DNA from: Candidatus Nealsonbacteria bacterium
GTDB lineage: Bacteria; Patescibacteriota; Minisyncoccia; Minisyncoccales; PWPS01
Reading direction: 5' to 3'
Assembly: GCA_003560095.1 (NCBI GenBank)
Contig: PWJI01000010.1
Location: forward strand, 1 to 50,678
Length of the DNA: 50,678 nt
The notes under the pieces are model-generated. The model ran no database searches and was not told the origin of the DNA. It saw only the letters and a program-made list of their open reading frames with translations. Every line of letters starts with the position of its first letter. Position 1 is the first letter of the stretch. The translations under genes were made by a program, and so were the position numbers. Below, piece by piece: positions 7,690 to 45,554 of this stretch.

Positions 7690-7717
7690 GGCAGAGAGTT
7701 AATCTTCTCTGCTTTTT

Positions 7718-9025
7718 TTAATAATCTCTCACACATCTCACAGAAGCTGTTCCTCTTGCATCTCTACAATTGCGCCTAATCCCCGTTTCATTATAATTAA
7801 TTTCTCTTGTTGCATAAGCCGCTCTGGCAATACCACACTGAGCATCTCCATGTGCCGAAGTTGATGACCAAAAAAAACCATCCTCCCCCATTCCGCGAAA
7901 TGTACCCAAACTATGACCCAGCTGATAGCCCGAAGGAAGAGCATCAAACCCTAAATCACCAAATAAATTATTTTCTTTTAAATCTCCTTCTTTCCAAAAA
8001 TCATAATTTCCAGAAAGCTTACTTCCCTCGTCGCTTCCTCGAAAACCATAATCTTTAGCATATCTTTCATTTAATCCTATTTCAGTTTCTAAAACTACCC
8101 AATCTTCATCGGTAGGAATTCTCCACCCTAAAGGGCATATTCCTTGCACTCCTTCTCCTTCTTGACCACAAAAAGCACTTCTAATGTCATAAAGTCCACC
8201 GTAACGATTACAATTACCTATGCTATCTTGATAACAATAACGTTTAACTTGGCAATCAATGTCGGTTTCTCCTTCCTCGATATTCAAATTTTCCTGTATC
8301 CAGCATTGATCAGCAATTCTTAAAGTATTATATTCTTCTTTTCCATATTTAATTAGGTCTCCACACTCCCACGCACTGTCTGTTATTACGCTAACCTCTT
8401 TGCTGTAATCACTTTCCTCATCATTTGCAATTTGAGTAATTGCATAAAAATATCTTTTTCCGGGAACAACATCCCTATCAGAATAATTTTCATTAACAGA
8501 TCTGCCTATTTCTTCATATATTCCTCCTTCGTAATCAGTTCTATAAATAACGTACTTCTCTTTCCCGACAGAATAATCCCAAAACAAATCTACTCTAGGC
8601 TCAAGGTTCTTATGAAAGCTTACTCTTTCCCCTCTAAGCCCCTCTGGTGGCTTTGGGGCAGTAATAGCACTTGCAACCGAACTAAAAGAACTTTCTGTAA
8701 TATTAATTGTTTGAGTAACTCTATAATAATACTCAGTAGAAGGATCAAGCCCTTTATCCAAGTATTCCTCTTTGGTAGAAAACCCTACACTTCTCCCGAA
8801 AGGTCCGTCAGGATTTTCAGATCGATAAATATTAAATTGCACCGCCCTTTCATCACCATCCCAAGTAAGCTTTATCTCACTGTCAGACCTTGTCTCCGCA
8901 GAAAGATGGGTCGGAACATTTTCTTCTCTAACCGATAAAATAACAATGAGTAAGATAATAAAAATTATAGGTAAAGACCAAAAAAAAGCTTTCTTTTTAT
9001 TAATTTTAGATAATTTTTCTTGCAT
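7718..9025 (-). CDS. type II membrane protein: two FN3-like domains plus a C-terminal Fib_succ_major (TIGR02145-type) domain
   Basis: It has an N-terminal TM. The FN3-like segments are IKLTWDG..FNIYRS..STEYYYRVTQ and VDLFWDY..YVIYRT..KRYFYAITQ (about 8381-8908). The C-terminus (7721-8371) has IADQCWIQENLN, YGGLYD, CPLGWRIPTDEDW, GFDALPSGY, FFWSSTS and SVRCVRDY. Confidence 0.75.
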   Translation of the reverse strand: MQEKLSKINKKKAFFWSLPIIFIILLIVILSVREENVPTHLSAETRSDSEIKLTWDGDERAVQFNIYRSENPDGPFGRSVGFSTKEEYLDKGLDPSTEYYYRVTQTINITESSFSSVASAITAPKPPEGLRGERVSFHKNLEPRVDLFWDYSVGKEKYVIYRTDYEGGIYEEIGRSVNENYSDRDVVPGKRYFYAITQIANDEESDYSKEVSVITDSAWECGDLIKYGKEEYNTLRIADQCWIQENLNIEEGETDIDCQVKRYCYQDSIGNCNRYGGLYDIRSAFCGQEGEGVQGICPLGWRIPTDEDWVVLETEIGLNERYAKDYGFRGSDEGSKLSGNYDFWKEGDLKENNLFGDLGFDALPSGYQLGHSLGTFRGMGEDGFFWSSTSAHGDAQCGIARAAYATREINYNETGIRRNCRDARGTASVRCVRDY

Positions 9026-9038: not shown

Positions 9039-10352
9039 TTAATTATCAGAAGATTCTTCTTCTTTTTCGCTGGTTAGTTTTTTTATTTTTTCTTTAGCTT
9101 TTTTCAATTCTTTCTTTAATTCAATCATTTTAAGTTCTCTGCCAACCATCATTTTACTCATTTTTTCGTATTCTTTTATCTTCTTCTCCATTTCCTCTGT
9201 TCTTTTTTTAACTTCAGCCTCTAGTTTTTCATTTATTTCGCTTAGCTCTTTTGTTCTTGCTTTTACTTTGACTTCCAAAATATCTTTTTCTTCCTCTTTC
9301 TTCTTGCTTATCTTGCCTAAATCATCAACCATTTTATTAAAATTCTCTGCCAATTCCCCAAACTCATCTTTTGATTTTATTTGCGCATAAGAATTAAAAT
9401 CACCTTTTGCAACTCTTTTTGCGGCAATGGAAATGTCTTTTAGGGGTTTCATTACTCTTCTTGAAATGAAAAAAGAAACCAAGATAATGGGCAAAAAGAA
9501 AGCAATTGACAAAAGGAGATAATAGGTTGCCATCTCACTTAAAAGCCAAACTGCACCCTCCCGTGAACGTGCAGTTATTAAATGCCAATTTAGCTCATAA
9601 TCTTCATTCCCAAAATTCATATTTCGAAAATTAGCATTCATTATGCTCCCCTCAAAATGAAACTCTGTACTTCCTTCGCTTCTTTGCAGATTTTGGTGTA
9701 GCGGATAAGCATCCGTTATTTTTTCGAAAATATAATCTCTATCAGAAGAAAATATAATAATCCCATAAGGATTTAAAATAAACACTACTCCTTTTGCTGC
9801 TATTGCCGTATCAATTATTCTAAATAGCCCCCCCATATCAACTTGAACAACAATATAAGAAACATACCTATCTTCTTTAATTTCATGGGGAATAAAAACT
9901 GTTATCGCAGAATCTCTTGACTCAGAAATAATATGAGCCTCTGAAACAATTGTTTGCTCCTCACTCTTTGCCTTTAAAAACCATGGATTTTTAGCCCAAT
10001 CTTCTCTTTCTCCGGTAGAAAAAACTGTTTCTCCGGCCTCATTAACAACAGATATTTTTCTAAAAAAAGATTGATTTTTGGATATTTCTTTTAATGCTTC
10101 TTTTTTTTCTTGAGTAGAATAATTCTTATCTCTTAGTTTATGATTATCAGTAATAAGTTCAGCACTTTTAACTGCATTACTTATAAAAATATCTGCTTTT
10201 ACAGAAATCAAGTCTCCGGTCTCTTTTGCTCTTTCATAATTCGTATTTTGAATATATGAATTAAAAAAATAAAAAAGAAAACCCCCTCCAATAAAGAGAG
10301 GCAAAGACCCTATTAAGATCAAAATAATTATTAGATTAGTCCTAAATTTCAT
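9039..10352 (-). CDS. Cache-like sensor plus HAMP domain transducer ending in a coiled coil, with no recognisable output domain
   Basis: TM1 spans aa 7-29, an extracytoplasmic region of about 240 aa follows, and TM2 spans aa 273-295. The HAMP domain is PLKDISIAAKRVAKGDFNSYAQIKSKDEFGELAENFNKMVDDL (about 9315-9467). The coiled coil runs LEVKVKARTKEL..KEYEKMSKMMVGRELKMIELKKEL to the stop. Confidence 0.7.
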   Translation of the reverse strand: MKFRTNLIIILILIGSLPLFIGGGFLFYFFNSYIQNTNYERAKETGDLISVKADIFISNAVKSAELITDNHKLRDKNYSTQEKKEALKEISKNQSFFRKISVVNEAGETVFSTGEREDWAKNPWFLKAKSEEQTIVSEAHIISESRDSAITVFIPHEIKEDRYVSYIVVQVDMGGLFRIIDTAIAAKGVVFILNPYGIIIFSSDRDYIFEKITDAYPLHQNLQRSEGSTEFHFEGSIMNANFRNMNFGNEDYELNWHLITARSREGAVWLLSEMATYYLLLSIAFFLPIILVSFFISRRVMKPLKDISIAAKRVAKGDFNSYAQIKSKDEFGELAENFNKMVDDLGKISKKKEEEKDILEVKVKARTKELSEINEKLEAEVKKRTEEMEKKIKEYEKMSKMMVGRELKMIELKKELKKAKEKIKKLTSEKEEESSDN

Positions 10353-10403: not shown

Positions 10404-11075
10404 TTAATCAAGGGAATTTTCGTTTTTTTCTTTCTTTTCTCGTAACTCTTTTAGCTCTTTCTTCATTTCCATCATTCTTAGTTCTCTGCCAACCATGAGT
10501 TTACTCATTTTTTCGTATTCTTTTATTTTCTTATTTAATTCTTTCGTTCTCTCTTGAACCTCATTCTCTAACTTTTCATTCATCTCTTCTATTTCTTTGG
10601 TTCTAGCGCTAACCTGAACCTCTAAGACTTGCTTTTGCTCTTCTAGTGAAATTTGCTCCTTTAATTTTTCCACCATTTTATTAAATCGTTTTGTAAGCTC
10701 TCCTATTTCGTCATTATCATAAATTTTAACCCTCACATCAAAATTACCTTTGGTTACTTTTTTTGTACCACTATCAAGCCTTCTTATTGGCTTGGAAATA
10801 TTTCTAGCCAATAATATAGATCCAAACAAAGAAAGAATAATAACTATAAATAGCGTTAAAAGTGACTGCGTTCCAATATCAGTCATAAGGGGTAAAAATT
10901 CTTTTCCTGCCTCCACAACATTCTTATTTTTATGATTTTCAAAAAAATTTACTAAAGATTGTTGGTATGAAAAATTAATAAGAAAGCCTGCTACAATTAC
11001 AGGAAAGACAGTAAATAAAAAAGAAGATAAAACAAGCTTTCCAAAAACACTTTTTAGCATAGATCTTTTTTTCAT
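10404..11075 (-). CDS. short HAMP-domain transducer, paralogue of the C-terminal half of 9039..10352
   Basis: Two TM helices flank a loop of about 35 aa. The HAMP domain is KPIRRLDSGTKKVTKGNFDVRVKIYDNDEIGELTKRFNKMVEKL. The tail is the same as the neighbour's: LEVQVSARTKEI..KEYEKMSKLMVGRELRMMEMKKEL. Confidence 0.7.
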   Translation of the reverse strand: MKKRSMLKSVFGKLVLSSFLFTVFPVIVAGFLINFSYQQSLVNFFENHKNKNVVEAGKEFLPLMTDIGTQSLLTLFIVIILSLFGSILLARNISKPIRRLDSGTKKVTKGNFDVRVKIYDNDEIGELTKRFNKMVEKLKEQISLEEQKQVLEVQVSARTKEIEEMNEKLENEVQERTKELNKKIKEYEKMSKLMVGRELRMMEMKKELKELREKKEKNENSLD

Positions 11076-15964: not shown

Positions 15965-17403
15965 TGCTCGGAAGAAAATATCTTTTCAAATTGATCCATT
16001 TTGTTGTAAACTTGAATAGTTTTTAGATTATACAACTCTTTTACATCTTGGTAAACCCCATATTCGGTTCCTCTTGCCGCTTTATATCCAGCACTTTCTA
16101 CTCTATCTAAAACTTCATAATTTAAAGCACCGTAAGGGTAAGCAAAAAAATCAATACTTACATCCAGTTTTCTTTGGAAAAAGTCCCTACTTCCAACTAT
16201 TTCAATTAAGAGACCTTCTTTACCTTCTTTGCTTAAATTGGGGTGATTCATGCTATGAGAACCTATTTCCATTCCATGCTCTATTAGCTCATTAACGTTA
16301 TTCCAATCCATGAACATTCCTCCTCCAATATAATTTCCAACCAAAAAAAACGTTGCTACAAAATCATATTCCTTAAGTACCGGAAAAGCATTTTCGTATT
16401 GATTCTTCCACCCGTCATCAAAGCTAATAATCAAATAATTTTCCGGAATCTCTTTGCCGTTATTTAAAAGATCTATAAATTTCTCAAAAGTAATCGGATT
16501 GTAGTTATTTTCATAAAGATATTTCATTTGCTCTTTAAACATAGAGGGGGTTACTGTTAAGTCTTTCCACTCCTTGCTGGCATCTTCAGGAAGATCTTCT
16601 ATGTGATGATACATTAAAATAGGCATTCTCAAGAAAGAAGACTCGTTCGTTTTTTTTCTTAAAGTAAAATAATTCTCACTTCTTTTTTTAATTAAATCAT
16701 CATTCCATATATACTCTATTTTTATTTTTACTTCTTTTTTTTCTGGAAGCACTTCTTTCGGAAACCACAAAAAATTCTCTAAAGAGCAATCTACATTTTT
16801 TTTAATTTCTTCTTTTTTATTTTCTTCACTTATAATATAAAAATCAATAGTTTCCTGTTTCATTTGAGAGGGGCAAGTCCATTTTATCTCATAACCTTCT
16901 CCGATAAAAACATTTTCTTTCACAGAAGAAGAAAAAAATATTTCAGGATAACTACTGCTTCCCGTAACCTCTTTCTCTTTTGCCACTTCTTCCTTCAAAG
17001 AGCTTTCTTCAAAAAACATTTTCAGCTCTCTTTTAATACTATCTTCCTTTCTGGCAACTTCTAAATTCTTTTCGTGCTCTTTATGGCTTAAAAAAACAAT
17101 AACACCTCCCCCCAAAAAAAAGACAATTAAAAAGCCTGTCAAAAATAAAATAATTTTATCAAGCCTTTCTTTTTTAAATTGATTATTTTCTCTTAGGGGG
17201 TTCGCTTTTTCTTCTTTTTGAATTATATTTCCACTTATTATTTTATCGAGAATTTCTTTGGAAGAAGTATTCCCCTGTTCTTTTCTAAGAAGAGCATCTC
17301 TATTTATTTCACTTTGTTTTATAATTTCTTGCAAAATAATATCATCAGAAAATCCCGCCTTTCTTGCTCTTTCTATAAATTCTATGATATTTTTTTCTTG
17401 CAT
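15961..17403 (-). CDS. type II membrane protein with a C-terminal polysaccharide deacetylase (NodB/CE4) domain and the shared N-terminal cytoplasmic module
   Basis: CE4 motifs are MPILMYHHI, ISFDDGW and GSHSMNHPNL. The TM lies around aa 84-106. The N-terminus is IIEFIERARKAGFSDDIILQEII..SSKEILDKII. Confidence 0.8.
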   Translation of the reverse strand: MQEKNIIEFIERARKAGFSDDIILQEIIKQSEINRDALLRKEQGNTSSKEILDKIISGNIIQKEEKANPLRENNQFKKERLDKIILFLTGFLIVFFLGGGVIVFLSHKEHEKNLEVARKEDSIKRELKMFFEESSLKEEVAKEKEVTGSSSYPEIFFSSSVKENVFIGEGYEIKWTCPSQMKQETIDFYIISEENKKEEIKKNVDCSLENFLWFPKEVLPEKKEVKIKIEYIWNDDLIKKRSENYFTLRKKTNESSFLRMPILMYHHIEDLPEDASKEWKDLTVTPSMFKEQMKYLYENNYNPITFEKFIDLLNNGKEIPENYLIISFDDGWKNQYENAFPVLKEYDFVATFFLVGNYIGGGMFMDWNNVNELIEHGMEIGSHSMNHPNLSKEGKEGLLIEIVGSRDFFQRKLDVSIDFFAYPYGALNYEVLDRVESAGYKAARGTEYGVYQDVKELYNLKTIQVYNKMDQFEKIFSSEQ

Positions 17404-17420: not shown

Positions 17421-19046
17421 TTACCCTCCAAACAGATTTTTCATCATTTCATCCCACCTATTATCAATAGAGGCTCCTATATTTATAAGATCATTACACC
17501 TTTCTTTAAAAATTTTAACATTTTCTTTTGCCCGAAAATTTTCATTAACACCTTTAATCGCCAAATCAAATTCTTCCAGCGCATTTTTACATTTTTTTTC
17601 ATGCATAAAGTAAAGCCCTCTTTTAAAATGATTATAATAATCTCCCTTACTTTCCTGAGAAAAAATGTCACTCATTTCTTTAAATAGATTAATTGGAATG
17701 GCACGAGAAAACGAATCTCCCGTCATCCCTTCCATCTCGGGTGTTCCTACTGAAAGTATTGCAATGACCTCTCCGGCTTCATTGATAATAGGGCTTCCAC
17801 TAGATCCCGGAGAAGCTTTTGCATCTGTTTCAATATAATCAAACTGCCCCTTTGGCTCTGTTTTTAGGGCAGTAATAACTCCGGAAGTAAAAGAAGGTCT
17901 CAAATAACTTCTTCCAATTCTTATGCTTGGAAAAATGTTTGCCTTTTTGAAATTTCCTCTCATGAAATTATGCCTTGTGTCCATTATTCCGCTAGTCGCA
18001 GGAAATCCAAAATTATAAATAGAGCCCCCTATCCTTGCCGAGCTTGAATCACCCAAATAAGCAGCTGGGAGATTTTCTTCTTCTATCTTTATAAGAGCCA
18101 CATCTTTGTAATTGTAAAACCACTCTAAGTCAAATTCTAAAATTTCAAAAGGAAAACCCTCTTGTGTTAATTCATTTATCCTTTCGCTTTCAGAGGAAGG
18201 ATTAAAAACTATTCCCTTTTCTTGAACATCAAAGCTCATTACGTTTAAAATCCCTTCTATAGAAGCCCTCATCATGTTTGCAGCTTCTTGAAAGTCAGCT
18301 TCTTGAAATACCTCCTCCACTCTTTTCTCAACTCTCTGAGCCTCCTCATGTCTTCCCTCCCAAATAAGGTTAATTTGCTCTTCCATTATCGCAGAAGCAA
18401 AAATTTGAAGTGCCAGAGACTTCTTAATATAATCACTATTTACAACATGAGCATTTGTTAAAATAAGTCCATGAGGATCAACAACAAAACCGGTTCCTTC
18501 CCAATAAATTTCCTCAAGCGGAAGAACACTGGTCTCTCCGGTAAAAGATCTAGTCACGTGAAAATTTTCTAAATTTATATTAAAGGGTTCAATTTCAACA
18601 TTTCCACTAATAGCATAGCCAATTTTAACAACCGAGGGCTCAATAATTCCGGCAACCTCTGATCTACTCAACTGAAAATTGGCAAAATCTCTTTCGGTTA
18701 TTTCTTTTGATAAAGGAGTGCGAAAATAAAAAAATAAAAAAGCAAACACTCCTCCAAAAAATAAAAATGTCCCCAAAAAAACATATTTTAATTTGCTTTT
18801 TAAGGGAGCTTTAATATTTCCCGAAAAAGGTTTTAGAAGAGAATAAGGATTGCTTTCTTCTTTTTTGTCTTGAATTATTTCATCAAGAATCTCTCCTTCT
18901 TTTAGCCCTCTTTTTTCTAAGATATTAAAAAAAGATAGCTTTTTAGGATTTTTGTTTTTTATTATTCTTACTATTTCCTCATCGCTTACGCCTCTTTCCC
19001 TTGCCTTTAAAATTGCCTCAGCAATATTTTTTTTATTTTTACTCAT
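17421..19046 (-). CDS. type II membrane trypsin-like (S1C/HtrA-like) serine protease with the shared N-terminal cytoplasmic module
   Basis: GTGFVVDPHGLILTNAHVV carries the His, KDVALIKI the Asp and GSSGSPIINEAGEVIAILS the Ser. The TM lies around aa 88-108. The N-terminus is IAEAILKARERGVSDEEIVRII..KEGEILDEII. A TPR-like helix pair sits at the C-terminus. Confidence 0.75.
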   Translation of the reverse strand: MSKNKKNIAEAILKARERGVSDEEIVRIIKNKNPKKLSFFNILEKRGLKEGEILDEIIQDKKEESNPYSLLKPFSGNIKAPLKSKLKYVFLGTFLFFGGVFAFLFFYFRTPLSKEITERDFANFQLSRSEVAGIIEPSVVKIGYAISGNVEIEPFNINLENFHVTRSFTGETSVLPLEEIYWEGTGFVVDPHGLILTNAHVVNSDYIKKSLALQIFASAIMEEQINLIWEGRHEEAQRVEKRVEEVFQEADFQEAANMMRASIEGILNVMSFDVQEKGIVFNPSSESERINELTQEGFPFEILEFDLEWFYNYKDVALIKIEEENLPAAYLGDSSSARIGGSIYNFGFPATSGIMDTRHNFMRGNFKKANIFPSIRIGRSYLRPSFTSGVITALKTEPKGQFDYIETDAKASPGSSGSPIINEAGEVIAILSVGTPEMEGMTGDSFSRAIPINLFKEMSDIFSQESKGDYYNHFKRGLYFMHEKKCKNALEEFDLAIKGVNENFRAKENVKIFKERCNDLINIGASIDNRWDEMMKNLFGG

Positions 19047-19052
19047 AGAGCC

Positions 19053-20294
19053 CTAACCCTTAATACATCTAACAGAAAGACCGCTTTCTAAAATAAGCGG
19101 TATCCTTTTTATCTCCGGATAACCGGAATAAAGCATCCTTACGAAAGCAGAAGATTCTTTTTTAGTAGACGTCCAAAAACCTGTTCCAATATCAATTCCA
19201 TTAAATTCTCCGCTGGGCTCTCTTCCCCCGGCAGGCAGAGCAGAAAAGTTACTTATATCACTACCATCCCACTCTTCTGACTTTATTTTTTCACCTTCAT
19301 TTGAACCTCTCCACTTAATTTCGTTTGCTTGTGTTAAGCTCATTCCAAGAGCTCTTTCCATTTCCCTAAACTCTTCATCGGTTGGTAATCTCCATCCCCT
19401 AGGACAAACATCTACGGCATCATTGTAATTATATAGTCGCCCATAAGAATCACAATTTTCTTCTTGATTTTCATAACACCAACTTTCATCCGTTTCATAA
19501 TTCAAATTTTCTGCCATCCAGCAATACCGTCCAATTTGTACAATATCATATCTTAAATTATTTCTATGATCGGTATGCGTACTAAGTCCTTCACAAGGAT
19601 TACCATTTGCAAAAGGCAATTCTTCCTCACCTTCCTCTTCTTCTTGAGTGTCTTCTTCGTCTTCTGTGCTCTCTTGTGGTATATCATGACACATTCCGTC
19701 ATACCAATAAAAACCATTTTCTAAGCACTCTTCTTCATTTTCAATGTTTTCAAGAGAAATATCGTTGTCTTGCTGATCCTCTTCCTCTCCTTCTTCCTCT
19801 TGTTGCGGAGTTTCATAACACATTCCGTTATACCAATAAAAACCATTTTCTAAGCACTCTTCTTCATTTTCAATATTTTCAAGAGAAATATCTTCCTCTT
19901 TCTGTGGATCCTCATGACACATTCCGTCATACCAATAAAACCTTTTTTGTGCACACTCTTCTCGAGTCTCAATAGTGCTTGGATCATCGTCTCTGTCTTC
20001 TCCTACTTCTTCATGACACATTCCGTCATACCAATAAAAGTTTCTTTCTATACACTCTTCCTCGTTTCTAATTTCTTGTGCGTCAATATCCGGCAAAGGG
20101 TCGTAATGACATTTATTCTCATACCAATAAAACCCCTCTTCTTCACAGCGCTCCTTGTTTTTAATATTTTCAGGTATGGCATCTCTTCCATTTTCAAAAG
20201 AAGAATCCTCTCTTCCCGTAAAAAGCATTATAATTATCCCAAAAAAGAGTAGAAAAAAGCCTATACCTATAATTATTATTGTTTTTTTACTCAT
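19053..20294 (-). CDS. anchored surface protein: five C-x3-G-F-Y-W-Y-x3-C repeats plus a C-terminal Fib_succ_major domain
   Basis: The repeats are CEEEGFYWYENKC, CIERNFYWYDGMC, CAQKRFYWYDGMC, CLENGFYWYNGMC and CLENGFYWYDGMC. The C-terminus (19056-19559) has GRYCWMAENLNY, YGRLYNYNDA, CPRGWRLPTDEEF, FSALPAGG, GFWTST and SVRCIKG. Confidence 0.75.
   Translation of the reverse strand: MSKKTIIIIGIGFFLLFFGIIIMLFTGREDSSFENGRDAIPENIKNKERCEEEGFYWYENKCHYDPLPDIDAQEIRNEEECIERNFYWYDGMCHEEVGEDRDDDPSTIETREECAQKRFYWYDGMCHEDPQKEEDISLENIENEEECLENGFYWYNGMCYETPQQEEEGEEEDQQDNDISLENIENEEECLENGFYWYDGMCHDIPQESTEDEEDTQEEEEGEEELPFANGNPCEGLSTHTDHRNNLRYDIVQIGRYCWMAENLNYETDESWCYENQEENCDSYGRLYNYNDAVDVCPRGWRLPTDEEFREMERALGMSLTQANEIKWRGSNEGEKIKSEEWDGSDISNFSALPAGGREPSGEFNGIDIGTGFWTSTKKESSAFVRMLYSGYPEIKRIPLILESGLSVRCIKG
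19685..20147 (-). repeat. in-frame tandem coding repeats (period about 105-130 nt) encoding the Cys-hairpin motif
   Basis: 19685-19764 and 19814-19893 are 80-nt copies differing at 4 positions by my alignment. More diverged copies start near 19912, 20021 and 20105; all contain ATACCAATAAAA (the reverse complement encodes FYWY). Confidence 0.8.
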
Positions 20295-24106: not shown

Positions 24107-24126
24107 TTCCGCTTTTTGTAATTTAA

Positions 24127-24160
24127 AACCCCCTCCTTAAAAAGGAGGGGGTTTGTTTTT
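24127..24160. terminator. bidirectional Rho-independent terminator between hup and the nif3-like gene
   Basis: CCCCCTCCTT (24129-24138) / AAGGAGGGGG (24142-24151), flanked by an A-run upstream and TTTGTTTTT downstream. Confidence 0.75.
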
Positions 24161-24958: not shown

Positions 24959-27079
24959 TTAAGGCCTTAAAACACAGCGAACATGATAATATTCAAAATC
25001 TTTATCTCCGTAAAGACTTTCCCCTGAAAAAAAGTTTAACTTTCTTGCTTGCATAAAAGAACTTTCGGTAGAAGACCAATAAAAATTAGGAGTTGCGTTA
25101 TAGTCCCAGTAAGGAGCACAAGGTTCTCCCTGAAATTTACTCTCGCTTTTTAGACAATTTTCATAAAATTTTTCCAGTGTTCCTATGGCAGGCAAATACC
25201 AGTCATCTCTACCGGCATAGCTTAGCTCATTACAAGCATATGCTGCCATATTTTTTTCGGGGCAACTGGCATCTATTATTGCTTGATTGTTTTCTTTTTC
25301 TTTTTCATAATGATTGGCTCCGACATAATCTTCTTTGCATCCCCATTGATACTGAGAAGCAGGAAATTCATCAGCTGGAAGACTAAGTGTAGGAGTCCAT
25401 AAATTAAGATCAAAATCGCAATAAACTGTCTCTCCTTCAATTTCTATGCTTACATCCTTATGCTCTTTGCGCGTACAAAATTTACTTAAATCTCCAAGAA
25501 TAATTTTTGTACATATATTATTAATGCACTCGTGTCCGCTTGGACAATCTCCATAGTTGTGTCTTAAAATACAATTCCTGCTCTCTTTTGAGTGGCCAAC
25601 ACAATCGCTTCCTCCATATTCCGGCTTGGGATTATTACACTCTCTTGTTCTTGTTTTTTGTCCATACGCAGGAGCTTCCCCACACATTGCTCCACCGTCG
25701 TGCTCGATTACACAATCACTCCAATCACTCCACTCTCCCCAACCTCCATCCACCGGGACCATTTCTCCATAGCATTCATTTTCATGCCACTCATAGCCCA
25801 TCTCCTCACATTCTAATTTTGAAGTAAGAACATCGGGAGAGGGAAAATCAGAAAAACAAGCTCCATTATACCAATAAAATTTATTTTCTTCGCATTCTTT
25901 TTTAGATAAAATATTTTCAGGAGAAATTTCTTTCATTCTTTCTTCTTTTGGCATTTCATAACATCCTCCTTCGTACCAATAAAGACCCTCCCTTTCACAT
26001 ATATCTTGGATAGTGAGTCTTTCTATTCTTTGAGCAGTATCTATTGAAAACCAAGTAAAAAACCCAATGATAAAAATAATAGAAAAGAAAGAGAATATTA
26101 TTATTGAAAAAGCAACTTTTTGATTAATTTCTTTTCCAAGTATTTCAATTACTGATTTTTTTCTTTTTTGTTCTTCCAAGAAATAATGTTTTTCGTCTTG
26201 ACCAACTGCTTTATCTTCTTCAAAAAAATCTTCTTTTCCTTCTTTTGGCTCTTTCTCTTCTTCTTTTTCTGAAGGTTTTTCTTCAATAATCCTCTCCTCT
26301 AAGCGTTCTTTTTTCTTATCATCTTCTTTTTGCTTAAGTCCCATTTTTCTAATTCTTTCTTTTATATCTAATCTTTCCAATTCTTTTTCTCTTCTTTTAT
26401 CTTCTAACTCCCATCTTTTCTTTATGATTCTTATTCTTTTTTTAATATCTTTTTCTTGCTTTGCCTTTAGCTCAATCTCATCCTTTTCTTTTTTGATTGA
26501 TTCTATTTCACCACTAATTGAGAGTAGTCTTTTGCTTAGTTTTGTTCTATCTTCTTTTGTTTTTGCCTCTTTGTGTTCTTCTTTTTCTGTCAAAAAACTT
26601 TCTGCCTCTTTTTTTTCTTCCTCTTTCGCTTTCTTTCTTATTTTTTCTATTAATTCTCTTTCATTTTCCTCTTCCTTTGTATTCTTTTTTTTCTCATCCC
26701 TTTTAGTTGATTTATTTAAAATCATATCAACCTTTCCCCCTATTTCATCAAGATTAAATTTAGCCACTATAAAATAGTTTTCCGCTCCATATTTTTTAAT
26801 CTTTTCTATGTCTTCTTTGCTTCCCACATTGGAAGCAGCAATTACCGGAATGTCAGAAATATCCTTTCTTTCTTTTATCTTTTTTAAAAAATCAAAATTA
26901 TTTTTTTTGAACCCCTCCGTGCTCGCCAAAATAAGGGCGGGATAAATTTCTTTTATTTTTAAAAACGCCTCTTCTTCTGTTTTTAAAAGAAAAGCACCAT
27001 AGCCCATCTCTTTGAGCTTGTTTTTTAAAAGCTCTCCTACTTCTTTATTATTTTCAACAATAATTACTTTTTTAGCCAT
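24959..27079 (-). CDS. type II membrane protein: degenerate receiver domain, K/E-rich coiled coil, TM, three Cys-hairpin repeats, a TSP1 repeat, a small Cys knot and a DUF1566-type domain
   Basis: 706 aa. The TM is [23 protein letters not shown] (aa 322-344, 26048-26116) with basic residues on the N-side. See the sub-features. The C-terminus has [23 protein letters not shown] and [10 protein letters not shown] (DUF1566 / Lcl C-terminal-like pattern). Confidence 0.7.
25571..25747 (-). other. thrombospondin type-1 repeat (TSR) coding segment
   Basis: [59 protein letters not shown]. Codon positions were verified on the DNA (W447 = 25739-25741, C503 = 25571-25573). Confidence 0.75.
26720..27079 (-). 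other. receiver (CheY-like) fold domain lacking the acidic phospho-acceptor pocket
   Basis: Aligned by eye to CheY, KVIIVENN replaces the DD pair and ALILAST puts Ser at the D57 position. PVIAASN retains the T87-equivalent Ser and YFIVAKF retains the K109-equivalent Lys. Confidence 0.6.
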
Positions 27080-27116: not shown

Positions 27117-27926
27117 TTAGCTCAATACACTTTTCTCCATTTCTTCTTTTATTTTCTCCTCTATTTTTTCTACTTCTTTTATAATTTGAACTATTTTATT
27201 TCTTATTTCCTCTTTTTCGTAAACTATCGGTAGAAGATCAATTGCTGTTTGCCTTATCTCTTGAGCTCTCTTTTTTTGACTAATGATTTTTTTATTTTCT
27301 TCCCTTATCCTTAAAAATCTTTCTATCTTTATTTCCAGTTCTTCTTTTTGTAATTCAAGATTATCTTTTACTTCTTCCAATTGGAAATAAATTTCATTTA
27401 ATTTATTTCTAATGTCACTTTCCTTTACCTCTCTTAATAAAAGCTGAACAATAGAAAGAAGATCTTGACTTCTTTTTTTTGCTTCATTTATTCTGCTCAT
27501 TTGCAATTCTTTTCGAGACAAAAATCTTTCATCCATAAAATCTACTTCTTTCTCAAAAACAGCCATTATTTCTGTATCTTTTTCTAGTAAAAAAGAATGC
27601 TCTTTCTCTCGACTAACAATTACTCCCTCCTTTTCCCATCTAGAAAAATAAAAACCTTTTTGTGGTGATGCTTTTACTATAGCCTCCTCCTTCTTTCCAT
27701 ATTTTATTTCGCTTTGCACCTCTCCTCTCTCCCTATCTTTTACCTTAACGGTAAGAGTATAGGTGGGTTCTCTAAGAGTAAATCTTACTTTAGCGTTATC
27801 AAAATCTAATCGAGTATCTTCTTTTAAAAAAGAGTTCTCGGCAGAAACGCCTACAAAACCAAAAAGCAATATTACTTTTATAATAAAAATAGGAATATAG
27901 TATGAAATCTTCCTTTTGTTAATCAT
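27117..27926 (-). CDS. secreted protein: divergent InlB B-repeat-like domain plus a coiled coil of about 145 aa (mini-paralogue of the C-terminus of 39018..41906)
   Basis: Signal/anchor is [90 protein letters not shown] aligns with aa 744-812 of the 962-aa protein. A helical K/E-rich tail with an LLPIV motif follows. Confidence 0.5.
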
Positions 27927-37027: not shown

Positions 37028-38995
37028 CTATCTTAAAACACAACGAACATAATGAAAAGGAAAATTCTTTTCTTCAGAAGAGATATCCCCTGAGTAGAAA
37101 TTAAGCCTTTGTGCAGAAAAAGAATCAGACTCGGTAGAAGACCAATAATAGCCATTAATCGCATTATCATCCCACGAAGGCTTGCAAGGACCACTAGTCC
37201 CACCCCCTTGATTAATTAAACAATCTCTATAAAGATCATTTACTCTATTTATAGACGGCAAGGCCCAGTTTTGCTTTCCTCCATAACTTAGATTAGCACA
37301 TACAACTGCGGCACTAATTTCATCAGCACAATCACTATTTTTTATTAATTGTGTGTTGTTTCCATCATACATCTCAGAAGAAGCACCTACCTCTTCGCCA
37401 TAACAGCCCCATTCATATGCAGTAGAGCTTTCTGTTGTTGCAGGCAGTCGCAAAGTGGGTGTCCAGATATTAAGTTCCAAGTCACAATAAACCAAATCTC
37501 CCCCTATAAAAGAGCTTGTACTTTTATGCTCTTCTATTGTGCAAAATTCAGCAGGCTCTTCTGGGGGCGCGAAAGTAACTTCGGTGCAAATATTATTAAT
37601 ACACTCATACCCATCCCAGCAACCACCAAAATACCTGTCAACAAAACAAGTTTCAGTTTCTTCTGAAGAGCCTTCACATTCTTTTCCTCCATACTCCGGC
37701 TTAGGATTATTACATTCTCTGCTTCTAGATCTTTTTCCCTCCATTCTAATGCTTCCACAATCAAATGACCTTTCATCTACAACCTTGCACTCGCTCCAAG
37801 CACTCCAATTACTCCATCCACCATCTATCTTAATGGGTTCTTTTTGACACACATCTTCCTGCCAATAATATCCTGCTTCTATGCACCTTTCTTTAGAATC
37901 AATTTCTTCTAAAAAATCATCTTCCTCGTTTTCCTCTTCTTCCTTCTTCTTTTCTTCCTTTTCTTCCTTTTCTTCCTCAATGTATTGCTCTATTTCCTGA
38001 GAATCATCTTCTTGTTCTTTGAAAAAAATTTCCTCATAAGGATTTACTTCTGTCACATATGCTGCATCTTCTTCTTGAGAGTATTGAAAATTAAAATCAT
38101 TAAAAATAAAGAAATAAAGAAAAACTACTCCTACTCCAAAAATTCCTCCCATCAAAAGAAAAATTATTTTACTTTTTACAGTCAATTCCTCTCTTTTTTC
38201 ATCGTCATAAGAATTGTCTTTTGAAAAATCATTACCTCCTTTATTATTAGAAGAAATATCGGGGACTAATTCTTCTTTTTCTTCTTCTTTAGGAGAAGTG
38301 TTTTTTTCTTGAAGAGGTGGAGTAGTTTTCTCTTGTTCTATCTCCTCTTTACTGCTTTCGTAAGGCTTTTTTTTGAAAGATTTTATATCTTTCTTGTTTA
38401 CAGCAGAAAAAGATTGTTTAAAATTCAAAATTTTAAGAAGCTCTTCTTGTTTTTTGTCCTTAGGAGGTGGGGTGATTTTCTCTTGCTCTATCTCCTCTTT
38501 GCTACTTTCATAAGAATTATCTTCCAAAGAATCAGTGTCTTCTTTTTTGGAGGGAATATCGGAAGCTAATTCTTCTTTTTCTTCTTCTTTTTTTTCTTGA
38601 GCAGAAAGATTTTCTTCTGGATGACCTTTTTCCTGAAAAGATGAAGTGGCTTTCTCTTGCTCTATCTCCTCTTTGCTACTTTCATAATATTTATCTTCTA
38701 AAGAATCTGTAACTTTTTTGTCAGAAAGGGTGTCAAGGGCCAGTTCTTTATTCTTTTCTTCAGTAGAAAAATTTTCTTCTGGATAATCTTTTTCTTCTTT
38801 TTTTTCTTTTTTGTTTTGCCTAATTATTTCTCCTATAATTTGTTCCGGACTAAACCCCATCTCCTGAGCACGCTTAAAAGAACTTTCTCTTTCCGGCAAA
38901 TTTTCCCTAATTTCTTTCAAAAGAAGTTCGTCACTCTTGCCCTCCTCCTTTGCCTGTAAAATAAAATTTAATATATCTACTTTATTATTGCTCAT
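37028..38995 (-). CDS. type II membrane protein: shared N-terminal module, repeat-rich acidic cytoplasmic region, TM, Cys hairpin, TSP1 repeat, Cys knot and a DUF1566-type domain
   Basis: The start is taken at ATG 38995 (MSNNKVDIL..); the ORF track extends to 39037 and would overlap the upstream gene. The TM is [22 protein letters not shown] (38102-38170). The C-terminus has [24 protein letters not shown] and FHYVRCVLR. Confidence 0.7.
37646..37825 (-). other. thrombospondin type-1 repeat (TSR) coding segment, second copy
   Basis: [61 protein letters not shown]408 was verified at 37814-37816. Confidence 0.75.
38256..38700 (-). repeat. imperfect in-frame coding repeats ([12 protein letters not shown] x3, EEEKEEL-x-DI-x-S x2)
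   Basis: ATATCGG..CTAATTCTTCTTTTTCTTCTTCTTT occurs at 38256-38290 and 38556-38590. TTTCTCTTG(T/C)TCTATCTCCTCTTT occurs near 38327, 38477 and 38651. Confidence 0.75.
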
Positions 38996-39017: not shown

Positions 39018-41906
39018 CTACAAAGATAAATTATCAAAAAATACTAGCTCTTGATCTATCCTTCTCTCCACCTTTTTTATGCTTTCTAAGACTTCCATTA
39101 AGCTACTCCTAATAACCTCATCGTGATCTATTATTGGAAGAATTCTTCCAATGGTATTTTTTAAATTTACTACTCTTTCTTTTTTAGAAAGTAAGCGCTC
39201 TTTTTCTTTTTTAAACCTTGAAAGTTGTTCTAATTTTTGCTCCTTTTTTTCTTTTATCCTTTGCTCTATGTTTTTTATTCTATTTTTAACATCTCCCATT
39301 TCTTCCTTTAAGAAAAATAATTCTTCAATATTCTGTTCTTCTATCTGTATTAAAAGATTATCAATCAATCCAAGCATATTATTTACCCTTTCCTCTTGTT
39401 TTGTTAATTCTTCCATCCTTTCTTGTGTTCTTTTAAGCTCAATACCTTCTCCTAAATCTCCGGAAAGCCTGAATACACCTACTATCTCCCGATTTTTTTC
39501 TACAACAAATGTATACTCTCGTGTTCCGCTTAGCATAAGTCCCTCTTCCTCCCATCCGTAAAAATAATATCCGCTTTCAGGTATTGCTTTTATAGTAACT
39601 TCCTCGCCCTTTCTGTAAGTACCTGCATTTTTCACTTCTCCTCCTTTGTTATTTGCAACAATTAATTTAATATCGTACCTGGTTGCTCCTCCTCCGCCTC
39701 CACCCCCACTGCTTCTTTGCTTTATTTCTTCCCACTTAGCATAAACAGTAATATTTTCAATAATAATGGTTGATGAAGTAAAAGTATCTCCTTCTCCATT
39801 TTCCTGAGTATTCCACTCAACAAAATTATATCCATCTCTTGATGCTGAAAGAAGAGAGCCCACCTCTTTTTCGGGATTTATTATTTTTGTTTGACTTGAT
39901 GGACTTCCTTCGTTTCCATCAAAGTTTACAGCATATTGCCACGAAAAAAACGGATACTTCTCGCCATCTATTATATTCCATTTAAAATTAATGTTTGTTT
40001 CTCCCGGATTAACATCCATTATATCCCAAGAACTTTCCAGTCCTTGTGTATCAGTATTGTTATAAGTTGATATCTCTTTCATTTCATTTGTTTCTTTACC
40101 GGTCCCTCCTCCCATGCTTATTTCTGTTTGACTAGATTGAATATCCCAAAAAGAATTTACTACATTGACAGAAAGATTTTCTGGATATCCCACAAAACCA
40201 CCTACATCACTTTCTCCGGTCACCTCACTTTTTGAGTATGATTTTGAAATATCTCCGGGAGAATTGGTATTGCCATTTTTTCCAACAAGACCACCGACTC
40301 TATTTTCTCCCTCAACTAATCCCCTAGAATGGCTATTTTCAATATCACCTCCTCTATTTAAACCAACAAGACCACCTATGCTTTCTAAACCCTTAACCGT
40401 AGCATCTGCATAAGAAGTTTTTACCAAATTTCTATTATCTCCAACAAGACCACCGACTCTATTTTCTCCCTCAGACGCTCCTTCAAAATAACTTTTTTCT
40501 ATTATTCCTCCATTATACCCAACAAGACCACCTACTCTGTTTGCCTCTCCTCCATCAACACTTCCTATTGCAAAAGAAAGATTTATTGTTCCTTCATTTG
40601 CTCCAATAAGACCACCTATCTCTCCCCCAGAGTCACTTATAACATTTCCTTTAAAAGAAGAGCTTTCAATTATTCCGTTAGCCACTCCCGCAAAACCCCC
40701 GCAAGAAGTAGAAACATCAAGTTCACAATAAACATATCCTTCTATTATATGAACATTATTAATTTCTCCTAAACCTAAATAACCAACAATCGATCCAACT
40801 CCAGCCCAGTCACCTGTTCCCGTAATATTGCTATCTTCAATATTAATGTTTTCTAAAGTGGCTTCTGATCCCAAATATCCAAATAAGCCTATATGATTAA
40901 AGCTATGGTTTGCCGCATTTCTGCTAATATATAAATTAGAAATAGTATATCCTTGCCCATCCAAGGAACCATCAAAAGAATTCCCCTCCTCTCCTATGGG
41001 TTTGAATCCTCTTCCATCATTCCAATTCTCCGTATCTAGGCAATCAATATCATTTACCAAAACATAGTCTTTTATTAAATTATCTTCCATTTCTTGCAAT
41101 TCTTGACAACTAGAAATATGTCTTATCCATTGAGCATAAACGTCAACATCTTCAGTAATAATAGACTCTGAGGTAAGCTCATCTCCTGTTCCGTCTTGCT
41201 GCTTATTCCATTCAATAAAAGTATGTCCATCTCTTGACACTGATGGAAGTGGCCCCATTTCTTGCCCATGCTCTACTCCGGCCATAGCCACTTTTTGGAA
41301 TTCACCTCCTTCGCTGGTATAAAAATTTACAGTGTATACATTTATCTCCCATTGAGCATAAACGGTAACGTCTTCTATGACATTAGTTTCTGTTGTAAAA
41401 GCGCTTCCTTCTCCGTTTTCCTGAGTATTCCATTCAAGGAAGGTGTGTCCTTCTCTTGTTACTGTGGGTAGTGGATCTATTGTGCTTCCGTACTCTACTG
41501 TTTCTGTTTGTGTTGCTGGAGTTCCTTCGTTGGCGTTGAAGGTTACAGTATATTCATTTATTTCCCACTGTGCATAAACGACAATATCTTCGGTAATAAT
41601 GGTTGATGAAGTAAAAACATCTCCCTCTCCGTTTTGCTGCGTATTCCATTCAATAAAAGTATGTCCATCTCTTAACACTGATGGAAGATCTCCCACCGAG
41701 CTACCTTCCTCTACTTCTTTTGTTTGAGTTGAAGGAGATCCTCCGTTTCCATCAAAATTTACCGTATACTTTTGCTCATGAGGAGTAATATTATTGTATG
41801 TTGATTGACCATCACCCTCACTGTGAAAATAATTCGCATCAACAAAAGCTCCTGCTCCTAAAAAAAAGATAAATATGTAGAATATTGCTATATATTTTTT
41901 CACCAT
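39018..41906 (-). CDS. large secreted protein: three Listeria-Bacteroides (Flg_new) repeats, a GLUG-motif repeat region, a fourth Flg_new repeat, a Gly7 linker, a divergent InlB B-repeat and a C-terminal coiled coil
   Basis: 962 aa with a signal peptide. Flg_new units read [28 protein letters not shown] (41127-41771; fourth at 39732-39938). GLUG-type repeats read [12 protein letters not shown]-x-S (about 39942-41114). The B-repeat lies at 39468-39680 and the coiled coil at 39021-39449. There is no LPXTG or C-terminal TM. Confidence 0.75.
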
Positions 41907-43253: not shown

Positions 43254-45554
43254 TTATTTTATTAATTGAGACGGAATAAAGCAACGAACATTAAGTCTGT
43301 CATCTCTTTCGGTGGCTCCAACACTACTGGGATTAAAACCAACATACCAAGAAAACTCATTATCATAAATAGAAGATGTCCAATAATAAGAACCCATATT
43401 ATTATCCCAATTAAGAAAACAAGACGAGCAATCTTCGCAGGATCCCATTCCGTCTTGAGAAGACCAGCTACAAACAGAAGTTCCAAAAATATTTCTTAAT
43501 TGGTACCAGGTTGGCAACATCCATTGGCTTTGCCCTGCATAAGCTCCTCCAGGAGCTCTTCCTAAATCCCTACAATGATTAATAGCATCACCAAAATTAT
43601 GTAAATTTCTTGCGGTAGGCGACCAAAGATTGCCTTCATTATCACAATATACGGTATCTCCATTAATTGCTCCAACCGAGTTGTAATCAGATACAGAAGA
43701 GCAAAAATCTTCAACAGGTAAAGGCGCTGGCTCTGGAGGTTTTTCTCTTGTCTTACACTTCACGCTATCAAGTTTTTCAGATGCTGGAAAAGATCCATCT
43801 CTTAAATAAAATTCGTATTCTGTTCCGGGTGATAGTCCTCTTACAGTATAAGATCCTTCTTGGTGTCCTGTAAAGATACCTGTAATTCTTTCTGAAAATT
43901 TAAAAATCCATTTCCTTGAATTACCCTCCGTTTGATAAGCTAAAGTAATCTCATTTTCAGTAGTTTCAGCGCAAGAAATCGATCCTTGTATAATTTCTTC
44001 TGGTGGTGTTGGTTTTGGAGGTTCTTCTGCCTCCTCTTCCCATTCAAAATAAAGATCGGCTCTTCTCATATCCCATGTACTAGCATTCTCAAACCCTTCC
44101 TTTCCTGAGCCGAAAAATACAGGGATCATCTCTTCATTTACAACATGTCCTCTTTCATCTCCCAATATTCCAGGATTATGATTAACTAAGTCTTTATTTC
44201 CAGGCTCAGGCCATCCTTCTGGTGGCCTCATTCTGCCTATAATATTAAAGTCTCTATCAAGAAGACGAAACATGATGCTACCTTGGCCAGTATCAGCTAC
44301 AAGGATAAACTTATCACGTTCTGGCAAGTATTTTACATCTACCGATGAAAAAATATCGTCACTACCTTCTTTTTCTGAAGAAACGGACTCTCCATCATTT
44401 AAAGGAGTAAATGTTATTCCTCCATCAGTGGACTCAGAAACATAAGTTCCCCACGGAAAACCATCCTCTGGAGATATGGCATACGAGTAAAAATGAATAA
44501 ACCTGTTCTCCATAAAAATAACCGAAGACTGGCCAATGCCATAATGCATTTGTTGATGCTCCTTTGGAAGAGAAATAACCGGGTTTCTGTTATTAGCATG
44601 ATTCCAGTTAATTCCATCTTTTGAAGTAGCTAAAAATATTTGATTGTCTCCATGTGAGTAGCCTTCATCTTCCCAAAACCTTGGGTGCTCTGATGTAAAG
44701 AAAAGGTAATAATAGTTATTGCTTGCCTTAACAACGGAAGGATCACAAGCCCAATGACCTTGCTCTCCACCATAAATAGCCTGAAGAACAATCTTTGGGT
44801 CACTCCAATTCATTCCGTCCGAAGATTCTGCATAAAAAATTGAATCTCCATCTCCCTCATCTTTTGCACACCACCACATACGATAAAGTCCATCATCTAG
44901 CATAATCGATGGAGCGTAGTTATAACTTTCGTCATCTGTAATAACATAACCTCTGTCAATTATTTTTCCGAAAGGATCGTCTTTCTCTTTATCGGTTTTC
45001 ATGTCTTTGCTCTCTATTCTTTTTTTTATCTCTTTAATAGTGACATTAACTTCTTCTATCATTTCCAGCATCTTTGAACTTATTCTTACCTCGCTTCCTT
45101 TTAAAATGCTATTTAGTTTCATTCTTGTATAACTTCCCACAAAACCATTAGGAGAATCCATTCCTACAGGATCAAGAACTTCACTTTCATATTTTTCTTG
45201 AAATCTTTTTACAGCATCTTTGGTTGCAGGTCCAAAGTAATCGGTTTCGTTTCCGGACGAGCCATGTCCGCTCTGGGCTACTCTTGTTTGAGGGTCTTTG
45301 TTTAATACTTTTTGTAGTTCTCTTACGTCACTATCTCTCATTCCTAAGTAGAGGTTCTTTTGAAAAGTAAATTCTGCAGGTATTTCTGCAGAAAAAGACA
45401 TTTTGGTAACTCTTGTTAAGTTGCTAACCGTCTTTTCTATTTGCCTTAGTCTTTTCTCCAAATCCTCAGCTTCTCCATAAGCAGATAAAACTGAAAAAGT
45501 AAAGAGAAAAATAATGATTGATAAAACAAAAACAATTTTTTTTAAAATACTCAT
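43254..45554 (-). CDS. secreted PG_binding_1 domain, five-bladed beta-propeller glycosidase-like domain (GH43/32/68 superfamily-like), FN3 and DUF1566-type domain
   Basis: It has a signal peptide. The PG-binding part (45102-45359) reads [28 protein letters not shown]. The propeller part (about 44040-44972) has YAPSIMLDDGLYRMWW, YAESSDGMNWS, CDPSVVKASNNYYYLFF and LATSKDGINW. FN3 lies at about 43752-43991. The C-terminus (43275-43706) has QWMLPTWYQLRNIF, YYWTSS and LNVRCF. Confidence 0.65.
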   Translation of the reverse strand: MSILKKIVFVLSIIIFLFTFSVLSAYGEAEDLEKRLRQIEKTVSNLTRVTKMSFSAEIPAEFTFQKNLYLGMRDSDVRELQKVLNKDPQTRVAQSGHGSSGNETDYFGPATKDAVKRFQEKYESEVLDPVGMDSPNGFVGSYTRMKLNSILKGSEVRISSKMLEMIEEVNVTIKEIKKRIESKDMKTDKEKDDPFGKIIDRGYVITDDESYNYAPSIMLDDGLYRMWWCAKDEGDGDSIFYAESSDGMNWSDPKIVLQAIYGGEQGHWACDPSVVKASNNYYYLFFTSEHPRFWEDEGYSHGDNQIFLATSKDGINWNHANNRNPVISLPKEHQQMHYGIGQSSVIFMENRFIHFYSYAISPEDGFPWGTYVSESTDGGITFTPLNDGESVSSEKEGSDDIFSSVDVKYLPERDKFILVADTGQGSIMFRLLDRDFNIIGRMRPPEGWPEPGNKDLVNHNPGILGDERGHVVNEEMIPVFFGSGKEGFENASTWDMRRADLYFEWEEEAEEPPKPTPPEEIIQGSISCAETTENEITLAYQTEGNSRKWIFKFSERITGIFTGHQEGSYTVRGLSPGTEYEFYLRDGSFPASEKLDSVKCKTREKPPEPAPLPVEDFCSSVSDYNSVGAINGDTVYCDNEGNLWSPTARNLHNFGDAINHCRDLGRAPGGAYAGQSQWMLPTWYQLRNIFGTSVCSWSSQDGMGSCEDCSSCFLNWDNNMGSYYWTSSIYDNEFSWYVGFNPSSVGATERDDRLNVRCFIPSQLIK

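Follow-up and report, generated by a model that had tools for sequence, protein, structure and literature searches.

Receiver domains that lack the phospho-acceptor aspartate (aspartate-less receivers, ALRs) make up ~4% of receivers, and serine replaces the aspartate in ~15% of them (PMC4395418). The Y/T coupling residues of the switch stay in place in 66% and 61% of ALRs, in a role that the survey left unresolved (PMC4395418), and the switching of bacterial pseudo-receivers was called "a mystery" in a 2025 survey (PMC12632262). The described ALRs are soluble proteins, mostly with DNA-binding or enzymatic outputs, and two surveys of pseudo-receivers (PMC12632262, PMC4395418) make no mention of a transmembrane (TM) segment or an extracellular module. 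We analysed a gene from a Candidatus Nealsonbacteria bacterium whose 706-aa product, unlike the described ALRs, appears to join such a domain through a single TM segment to an extracellular region. The gene is on contig PWJI01000010.1 (assembly GCA_003560095.1), and the window referred to below is the whole stretch analysed, positions 1 to 50,678 of that contig (50.7 kb). To our knowledge, all characterised pseudo-receivers are soluble.

One described protein that shares part of this organisation is FrzS of Myxococcus xanthus. Its pseudo-receiver is without the acceptor Asp, binds neither Mg2+ nor a phosphoryl analogue, and offers SgmX a surface to dock on (PMC1974792, PMC9811614, PMC12632262). 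FrzS functions independently of phosphorylation, through protein-protein contacts, as a docking beacon for SgmX and type IV pili. Like the 706-aa protein, FrzS has an N-terminal Asp-less pseudo-receiver. The long coiled coil that follows in FrzS may have a counterpart in the linker of the 706-aa protein, where aa 180-250 alone have a heptad-like hydrophobic spacing. Unlike the 706-aa protein, FrzS is cytoplasmic and soluble, without a TM segment or an ectodomain, and the two heads are only ~19% identical.

On the extracellular side, the comparison is with Lcl of Legionella, the founding Lcl_C/DUF1566 protein. The C-terminal domain (CTD) of Lcl, the only solved Lcl_C member, has a C-type-lectin-like fold and is a glycosaminoglycan (GAG)-binding adhesin head (PMC11162425). 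In both Lcl and the 706-aa protein, a C-terminal Lcl_C domain tips an elongated surface protein. Lcl is secreted as a trimer, has a collagen stalk, and has no disulfides in its CTD. In contrast, the 706-aa protein is TM-anchored, has no collagen repeats, has Cys in its Lcl_C module, and carries that module behind a thrombospondin type 1 repeat (TSR). A logic analogous to that of the whole protein is found in the apicomplexan TRAP-family adhesins, which have a TSR ectodomain, one TM segment, and a cytoplasmic tail coupled to the gliding motor (PMC3417536). TRAP proteins are eukaryotic and the likeness is one of analogy only. Their membrane orientation is opposite to that predicted for the 706-aa protein, and their cytoplasmic tail is not known to be related to its head.

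The gene and the parts of its predicted product are:

24959-27079, minus strand: the receiver-headed gene (706 aa, ATG start, from the list of open reading frames [ORFs]), predicted to encode a type II (N-in) single-pass membrane protein
26705-27079, minus strand: Asp-less pseudo-receiver with a CheY-like fold, aa 1-125 (profile and PDB matches, AlphaFold2 [AF2] model, Foldseek)
26921-26923, minus strand: codon of Ser53, in place of the phospho-acceptor Asp (28 of 28 close relatives have Asp in this column)
26117-26704, minus strand: charged cytoplasmic linker, aa 126-321 (196 aa, 63% K/R/D/E, no Cys)
26042-26116, minus strand: the sole TM segment, a putative signal anchor, aa 322-346 (Kyte-Doolittle maximum 2.71)
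25760-26041, minus strand: three mini-repeats of the form C-E-x-x-G-x-x-W-x-x-x-x-C, aa 347-440 (Cys pairs 361/373, 396/408 and 424/436)
25568-25759, minus strand: TSR, aa 441-504 (sequence and Foldseek matches)
25478-25567, minus strand: small Cys-rich connector, aa 505-534 (common to a paralogue described below)
24962-25477, minus strand: extended Lcl_C/DUF1566 module, aa 535-706 (Pfam score above the gathering score)

We found that the head of the protein is a receiver with a dismantled phosphorylation site. An earlier note on this DNA, made from the letters alone, had read the first ~120 aa (26720-27079 is aa 1-120 of the 706-aa protein) as a CheY-like receiver. NCBIfam, PDB, a family profile, AF2 and Foldseek all agree with that reading, with the Pfam match below threshold. 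The PhoB receiver profile of NCBIfam matched the head with E=1.9e-10. The best sequence match in PDB was DivK (2.7e-7), followed by CheY, Spo0F, PhoB and FrzS, and an exhaustive phmmer search of 1.84 billion representatives gave 5093 matches to the head at E<=1e-3. A hidden Markov model (the family HMM) made from the 28 closest relatives, with the target left out, scored the target head at 88 bits (E=6e-28). The AF2 model of the head, made from the family alignment, is a (beta-alpha)5 fold that runs from b1-a1 to b5-a5, with a mean predicted local distance difference test (pLDDT) score of 84.8. Strands b1 (residues 4-8), b3 (49-53), b4 (79-83) and b5 (101-104) of the model coincide with the four strands (beta1, beta3, beta4, beta5) that had been placed by eye. 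In Foldseek, the model superimposed on DivK with a TM-score of 0.92 and a root-mean-square deviation of 1.2 A.

The Pfam result explains why this head is easily missed. Response_reg (PF00072) matched aa 5-112 with E=3.2e-5 and 24.5 bits, under the gathering score of 30.2, so the head is overlooked by standard annotation pipelines; the precomputed annotation of the 706-aa protein is Lcl_C alone. Because the gathering threshold hides such heads, like architectures may be under-counted.

The nearest family of the head consists of ~122-aa stand-alone receivers, and one close relative is named 'Candidatus Paceibacterota'. Judged by these matches, the head is a descendant of stand-alone CheY-like receivers of bacteria of the candidate phyla radiation (CPR) type. 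The FrzS pseudo-receiver was at rank 16 in the Foldseek search (TM-score 0.86, ~19% identity to the target head). We considered whether the 706-aa protein is a member of the FrzS family. The TM segment and ectodomain, the ~19% identity, and the different nearest relatives, which are the CPR-type stand-alone receivers, rule this out.

Three of the five catalytic positions in the head are replaced (D to N, D to S and K to V; the target has E9, N10, S53, S83 and V105). In the closest family, columns E9, D10, D53, P57, G61 and K105 are 96-100% conserved. The corresponding residues of the target are E9, N10, S53, F57, N61 and V105. The earlier note had the acidic pair as E-N and Ser at the phospho-acceptor position, and we saw both: the pair is E9-N10, and Ser53 is opposite the acceptor Asp in every alignment made. 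In a wider comparison of 290 receiver domains, taken from the 149 nearest library matches, the acceptor column was Asp in 266 and the second acidic position was Asp in 249. The switch residues are retained: Ser83 is at the T87 position, as had also been noted, and Tyr102 is at the switch Y/F position.

The statement that an equivalent of K109 is retained proved to be false. The Lys column is 100% K in the 28 close relatives and is Val105 in the target. In the 290 library domains, the Lys sits in a motif, [IV]-K-A-x-F, and Val105 of the target aligns there. The nearby Lys107 is displaced; it is two residues past the family Lys column and one residue past the expected Lys by alignment to solved receivers. 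That is, on these alignments the receiver is more degraded than the earlier note stated.

The pattern of the losses is that of a domain that still folds. Of 32 family columns with at least 85% of one residue, 14 are lost in the target. Seven of these 14 (D10, L52, D53, L56, P57, G61 and K105) are on the active-site elements b1-a1, b3-a3 and b5-a5, and the b3-a3 loop is rebuilt relative to the family. The aliphatic columns of the hydrophobic core are retained at 31 of 35 positions. Because the core is kept and the losses are concentrated at the phosphorylation site, the catalytic site appears to have been dismantled in a folded domain rather than by general decay. The head is predicted to be unable to take part in His-Asp phosphotransfer, and by the definitions in PMC12632262 its alignment places it as a pseudo-receiver of the ALR subset. 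Like the ALRs described (PMC12632262, PMC4395418), it has a receiver fold without the acceptor Asp; Ser is common at that position in ALRs and the Y/T switch is often kept.

The same comparison bears on a neutral or recent domain capture, in which a stand-alone receiver would have been fused to a fast-evolving gene for a surface protein, and the head would be a decaying passenger that adds cytoplasmic mass. Consistent with this, the head is the most divergent in its receiver family (88 bits, versus 134-191 for other members, by the family HMM), the protein is a singleton, and heads are interchangeable in this ectodomain family (below). Receiver fusions that are lineage-specific and narrowly distributed are also common; one such precedent, from a few methanogens, has an output domain anchored in the membrane (PMC5847659). 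However, the losses in the head are non-random, with 31 of 35 core columns kept, a confident model, and the changes concentrated on the phosphorylation site, and the 706-codon ORF is intact in every assembly. We take capture of a passenger domain to be a serious alternative, though on the whole a doubtful one.

Some relatives of the head that keep the acceptor Asp are encoded next to kinases. The gene for one of them (P0173) directly follows a gene for a HisKA/HATPase_c kinase, and that for another (P0164) is within a kinase-kinase-REC-REC cluster. Profile scans of the 50.7-kb window found no HisKA/HATPase_c kinase and no second receiver. We considered and rejected the possibility that the 706-aa protein is a phosphorylatable response regulator; the replacement of three of five active-site residues and the lack of a kinase in the window rule it out. 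Two adjacent genes elsewhere in the window (9039-10352 and 10404-11075, minus strand) encode membrane proteins with dCache_1 plus HAMP and with HAMP alone, respectively. Neither has a recognised output domain (no HisKA, HATPase_c, or methyl-accepting chemotaxis protein [MCP] signalling domain).

It is also conceivable that the old active site carries some other modification that regulates the head; a Hanks-type Ser/Thr kinase could, for instance, phosphorylate Ser53. Ser is among the commoner replacements of the Asp in ALRs (15%), and Maule et al. mention that Ser/Thr/Tyr phosphorylation might occur there, explicitly as speculation (PMC4395418). On the other hand, modification of this position is not known for any ALR (PMC4395418), the window has no Ser/Thr kinase (Pkinase) or PP2C gene, and the phosphoryl-stabilising Lys105 and Asp10 are also lost. 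We regard regulation through Ser53 as very improbable.

A receiver tethered to the membrane is not unique to this protein. One match of the exhaustive search (P0155, 411 aa) is of the same receiver subfamily and, like the target, has a linker (~90 aa), followed by a hydrophobic C-terminal tail that leads to the membrane. Unlike the target, it has tandem receivers (REC-REC), both of which retain the acceptor Asp, and it is without an ectodomain. Its second receiver is without the conserved Lys, at the same column as in the target. The hydrophobic tail of P0155 indicates that membrane-tethered receivers exist in this lineage.

We next consider how the head is connected to the outside of the cell. 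The 706-aa protein has one hydrophobic segment (aa 322-346), with flanking charges of +4/-2 on its N side and +2/-3 on its C side. There are no Cys in aa 1-346 and 22 in aa 347-706. The evidence favours an N-in/C-out topology: an N-terminal signal peptide is absent, the only TM segment precedes all 22 Cys, and the TSR and Lcl_C families are extracellular. The single TM segment with the N terminus inside is as proposed in the earlier note. We rejected the opposite orientation, with the N terminus outside, on the grounds of where the Cys lie, of the extracellular nature of the TSR and Lcl_C families, and of the missing signal peptide.

The linker was expected to be a K/E-rich helix of ~200 aa. 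The length (196 aa) and the charge (63%) were as expected. There is, in contrast, no uniform helix, since it is broken at Pro269, at Pro278 and at several Gly. An ER/K-like stretch, residues 124-180, has just 7-18% hydrophobic residues; residues 180-250 have a hydrophobic spacing compatible with heptads; and residues 250-300 are acidic, poor in hydrophobic residues, and broken by Pro269, Pro278, Gly281 and Gly293. The interrupted acidic part argues against a rigid, helix-mediated transmission of signals.

These properties bear on whether the protein could be a true TM signalling receptor, as the earlier note suggested, either outside-in (from ligand through the TM segment and linker to alpha5 and partner binding) or inside-out (from an input at the head to the presentation of the ectodomain). 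In the AF2 model, helix alpha5 of the receiver begins at residue 110 and continues unbroken into the linker helix, the retained Ser83 and Tyr102 could belong to a switch, and the heptad-capable aa 180-250 could dimerise. However, the Pro/Gly-broken acidic aa 250-300 would decouple helical motions over the ~200-aa spacer. Transmitters of the HAMP or S-helix type are absent, as is a downstream effector gene, the head of the paralogue is unrelated, and the architecture is conserved nowhere that we searched. It is unlikely, in our view, that the protein is a signalling receptor of this kind.

The predicted ectodomain is 360 aa with 22 Cys, made up of three Cys-hairpin mini-repeats, the TSR, the small connector and Lcl_C/DUF1566. 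The earlier note had described a ~360-aa ectodomain with Cys hairpins, a TSR and DUF1566, and all three modules were found. The mini-repeats (25772-25999, aa 361-436) have the pattern C-x11-C, with a Cys spacing of 12, and the model gives each of them a short helix and a beta-hairpin. They match no Pfam family, and Foldseek on the ectodomain model gave no structural match for them. One copy is present in the paralogue (aa 371-383).

The TSR is 46-56% identical to individual animal repeats, and the W-x-x-W-x-x-W ladder, the R-x-R strand and the Cys pattern are in register. The best match is a coral coadhesin (E=1.6e-31); properdin and semaphorin-5 also match. The Pfam TSR profile (PF00090) gave the target 15.4 bits, below the cutoff of 21.6, and the paralogue 21.9 bits, barely above it. 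Foldseek with the ectodomain model returned solely TSR structures, as weak matches (probability 1.0, E ~1e-3). By these sequence and structural matches, the TSR of the 706-aa protein is genuine. As far as we know, TSRs are rare in bacteria. It is possible that the TSRs in the target (aa 441-504) and in the paralogue (aa ~390-451) came from inter-domain transfer.

The Lcl_C module scored above the Pfam cutoff of 34.9 bits (PF07603; 36.0 bits with the full-length protein and 39.1 bits with the isolated region). It is 42-44% identical to the corresponding modules of the paralogue and of a pilin (P0006).

We found the complete architecture nowhere else. None of the 149 nearest receiver relatives from the exhaustive search has the order REC-linker-TM-ectodomain (0/149); the top matches are REC-REC or stand-alone proteins, and the one that comes nearest is P0155. 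The other Lcl_C loci fetched are without a receiver, and the architecture is non-standard for two-component systems, as the earlier note had held. A full-length homologue search, which scored the 8000 candidates sharing most words, returned only the protein itself and two semaphorins; we suspect that the K/E-rich linker crowded real relatives out of this search. In a scan of a genome collection, the ectodomain alignment picked up a single weak locus, from Flavobacteriales, with no receiver. The same alignment gave 12 loci in a metagenome scan, of which only the contig with the pilin was close and none had a receiver. Searches of the literature for membrane-anchored or transmembrane response regulators, and for these accessions, gave no match. 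What is new is the joining of an ALR, via a signal anchor, to an extracellular binding module; the class of the head, Lcl_C and the TSR were already known. A pseudo-receiver tied through the membrane to a surface-binding module would extend the outputs of receiver folds to cell-surface biology, and in a CPR organism such a protein could bear on how cells attach to partners.

The 706-aa protein is a singleton: all the contigs that carry it have one and the same gene sequence. The gene comes from a metagenome-assembled genome (MAG), and an artefact of assembly or annotation, such as a chimeric contig or a frameshift, could in principle have joined two genes. However, an identical 2121-nt gene is in the window, on a second NCBI MAG contig (PWYT01000050.1, assembly GCA_003567755.1), and in two Logan assemblies of different runs (SRR490128 and SRR490129), and the ORF is uninterrupted, with 706 codons, in every assembly that carries it. 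Because the same gene was recovered from separate assemblies and sequencing runs, the ORF is no assembly chimera, and the paralogue has the same layout (a long cytoplasmic region, a TM segment and an ectodomain). We give an artefact almost no credence. When the second NCBI MAG contig (L001) was compared with the window position by position, there were 7533 mismatches in 16,031 positions, with the gene itself identical. The mismatches point to one or more indels or rearrangements that separate that contig from the window.

The surroundings of the gene contain a second copy of part of this system. The features are:

27117-27926, minus strand: gene upstream of the receiver-headed gene, encoding a predicted signal-anchored or secreted protein of 269 aa with Flg_new_2 (InlB B-repeat) and a C-terminal coiled-coil region
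37028-38995, minus strand: the paralogue, with a small non-receiver cytoplasmic head, an E/K/S-rich linker, a TM segment (~aa 273-303), one Cys hairpin, a TSR and Lcl_C
39018-41906, minus strand: gene upstream of the paralogue, encoding 962 aa with Flg_new repeats, GLUG, Flg_new_2 and a coiled-coil tail

Over the last 290 aa of the ectodomain, the paralogue, 10 kb away, is 44% identical to the target. Its cytoplasmic part, a small head plus a linker, is unrelated to the receiver, and the head has no Pfam match. The 269-aa protein is 31% identical to the C terminus of the 962-aa protein over 215 aa (E=6e-31). Since each TSR-Lcl_C gene is directly downstream of a homologous Flg_new_2/coiled-coil gene, a two-gene surface cassette has been duplicated. 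Flg_new_2 and the same C-terminal module are also found in one polypeptide. The pilin P0006, encoded at 7227-8456 of its contig (L005), has a type IV pilin leader, Flg_new_2 and Lcl_C, and there are bacterial-type pilins on the contig. This fusion suggests that the two products of the cassette act together outside the cell. P0006 is the closest relative of the C-terminal module of the target (42-43% identity); it shows surface display and ties the module to Flg_new_2. Unlike the target, it is anchored as a type IV pilin subunit and is without a cytoplasmic domain, TSR or receiver. The metagenome contig that carries it is named SL_3KL_010_SED, which from the sample code we take to be soda-lake sediment. 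This name and that of the Paceibacterota receiver relative suggest that the target, too, comes from a CPR/Patescibacteria-type bacterium of soda-lake sediment.

Taking the results above together, with FrzS as the known parallel, we think there is about an even chance that the 706-aa protein is a signal-anchored surface-binding protein in which the Asp-less pseudo-receiver serves as a phosphorylation-independent interaction or oligomerisation head. The protein would be anchored N-in, C-out, with a disulfide-rich stalk outside the cell that is tipped by the Lcl_C module. The ectodomain would bind a glycan or protein ligand on another surface, probably acting with the product of the co-duplicated upstream Flg_new_2/coiled-coil gene. 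On the inside, the head would not be regulated by Asp phosphorylation and would be a constitutive module for protein-protein interaction or oligomerisation, held on a long charged spacer. It could cluster, position or tether the surface module, or recruit a cytoplasmic partner, with no phosphoryl relay.

Several results count against a surface-binding protein with an interaction head. No search found an orthologue that could show conservation of the architecture or of the surface of the head, and all four assemblies are identical in DNA, so the gene gives no polymorphism or dN/dS signal and hence no signal of selection. The predicted topology comes from hydropathy, charge and Cys distribution. 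The AF2 model of the ectodomain is moderately confident (pLDDT 66.6), low in the Lcl_C part, and that part is without a structural match. Ligand binding by the ectodomain is inferred solely from family membership, and the generic role of DUF1566 is not clear according to the authors of the Lcl work (PMC11162425). The window has no recognisable cytoplasmic partner for the head. Lastly, no receiver heads the paralogue, so the ectodomain may be able to function without one.

The suggestion in the earlier note that the gene anchors an undescribed signalling/adhesion system is not supported. The protein is a singleton, there is no kinase, second receiver or partner in the window, and the head of the paralogue is unrelated. 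The value of a singleton with no identified partner is as a lead for a systematic survey of architectures; it does not define a system.

A more ambitious possibility is that the bacterium is an episymbiotic member of the CPR and uses the protein for adhesion, as a phosphorylation-independent receptor of the integrin or TRAP kind. In such a receptor, the TSR/lectin ectodomain and the Flg_new_2 partner would engage a glycan or protein on the surface of a host. The pseudo-receiver, coupled to this event through the membrane, would recruit cytoplasmic machinery, for example that for pili, division or uptake. We regard this as quite improbable. If true, it would be a new class of output for receiver folds and the first case of bidirectional adhesion signalling built from two-component parts.

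The head of the paralogue contains a motif that recurs in the window. A cytoplasmic motif of ~25 aa, 'h..hh.A[KR]..G.S[DP][DE].I...II', is present, usually in two copies, at 38806-38995, 17230-17403 and 18870-19046. The signal anchors that it precedes, near the N termini, belong to three exoproteins that are encoded on the minus strand and are otherwise unrelated, namely a trypsin-like protease, a polysaccharide deacetylase and the TSR-Lcl_C paralogue. No Pfam family matches the motif. The presence of these heads before three signal anchors suggests that small cytoplasmic heads are a theme of this genome and that the receiver is the unusual one.

Surface proteins are abundant in the window. 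Within 50 kb, six end in Fib_succ_major or Lcl_C, the target and the paralogue included; the other four are encoded at 7718-9025, 19053-20294, 48633-50336 and 43254-45554, and one of these surface proteins has PG_binding_1, BNR and Lcl_C. By hydropathy, approximately two-thirds of the predicted proteins in the window start with a hydrophobic segment.

The window is ~32% GC, and nearly all of its genes are on the minus strand. It has bacterial markers: HU, VanY with PG_binding_1, RNase R, seryl-tRNA synthetase (SerRS) and NIF3. HU, VanY/PG_binding and RNase R, along with the bacterial-type pilins on the P0006 contig, led us to reject an archaeal source. Tandem DNA repeats in the linkers are trivial, low-complexity ones only. 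A scan for promoters and terminators gave nothing informative except a terminator past the downstream NIF3 gene. At 24126-24154, between the convergent NIF3 and HU genes, there is a strong, GC-rich hairpin with a 13-bp stem and T-runs on both strands. This hairpin is likely a bidirectional terminator that ends the string of genes that includes the 706-aa ORF.

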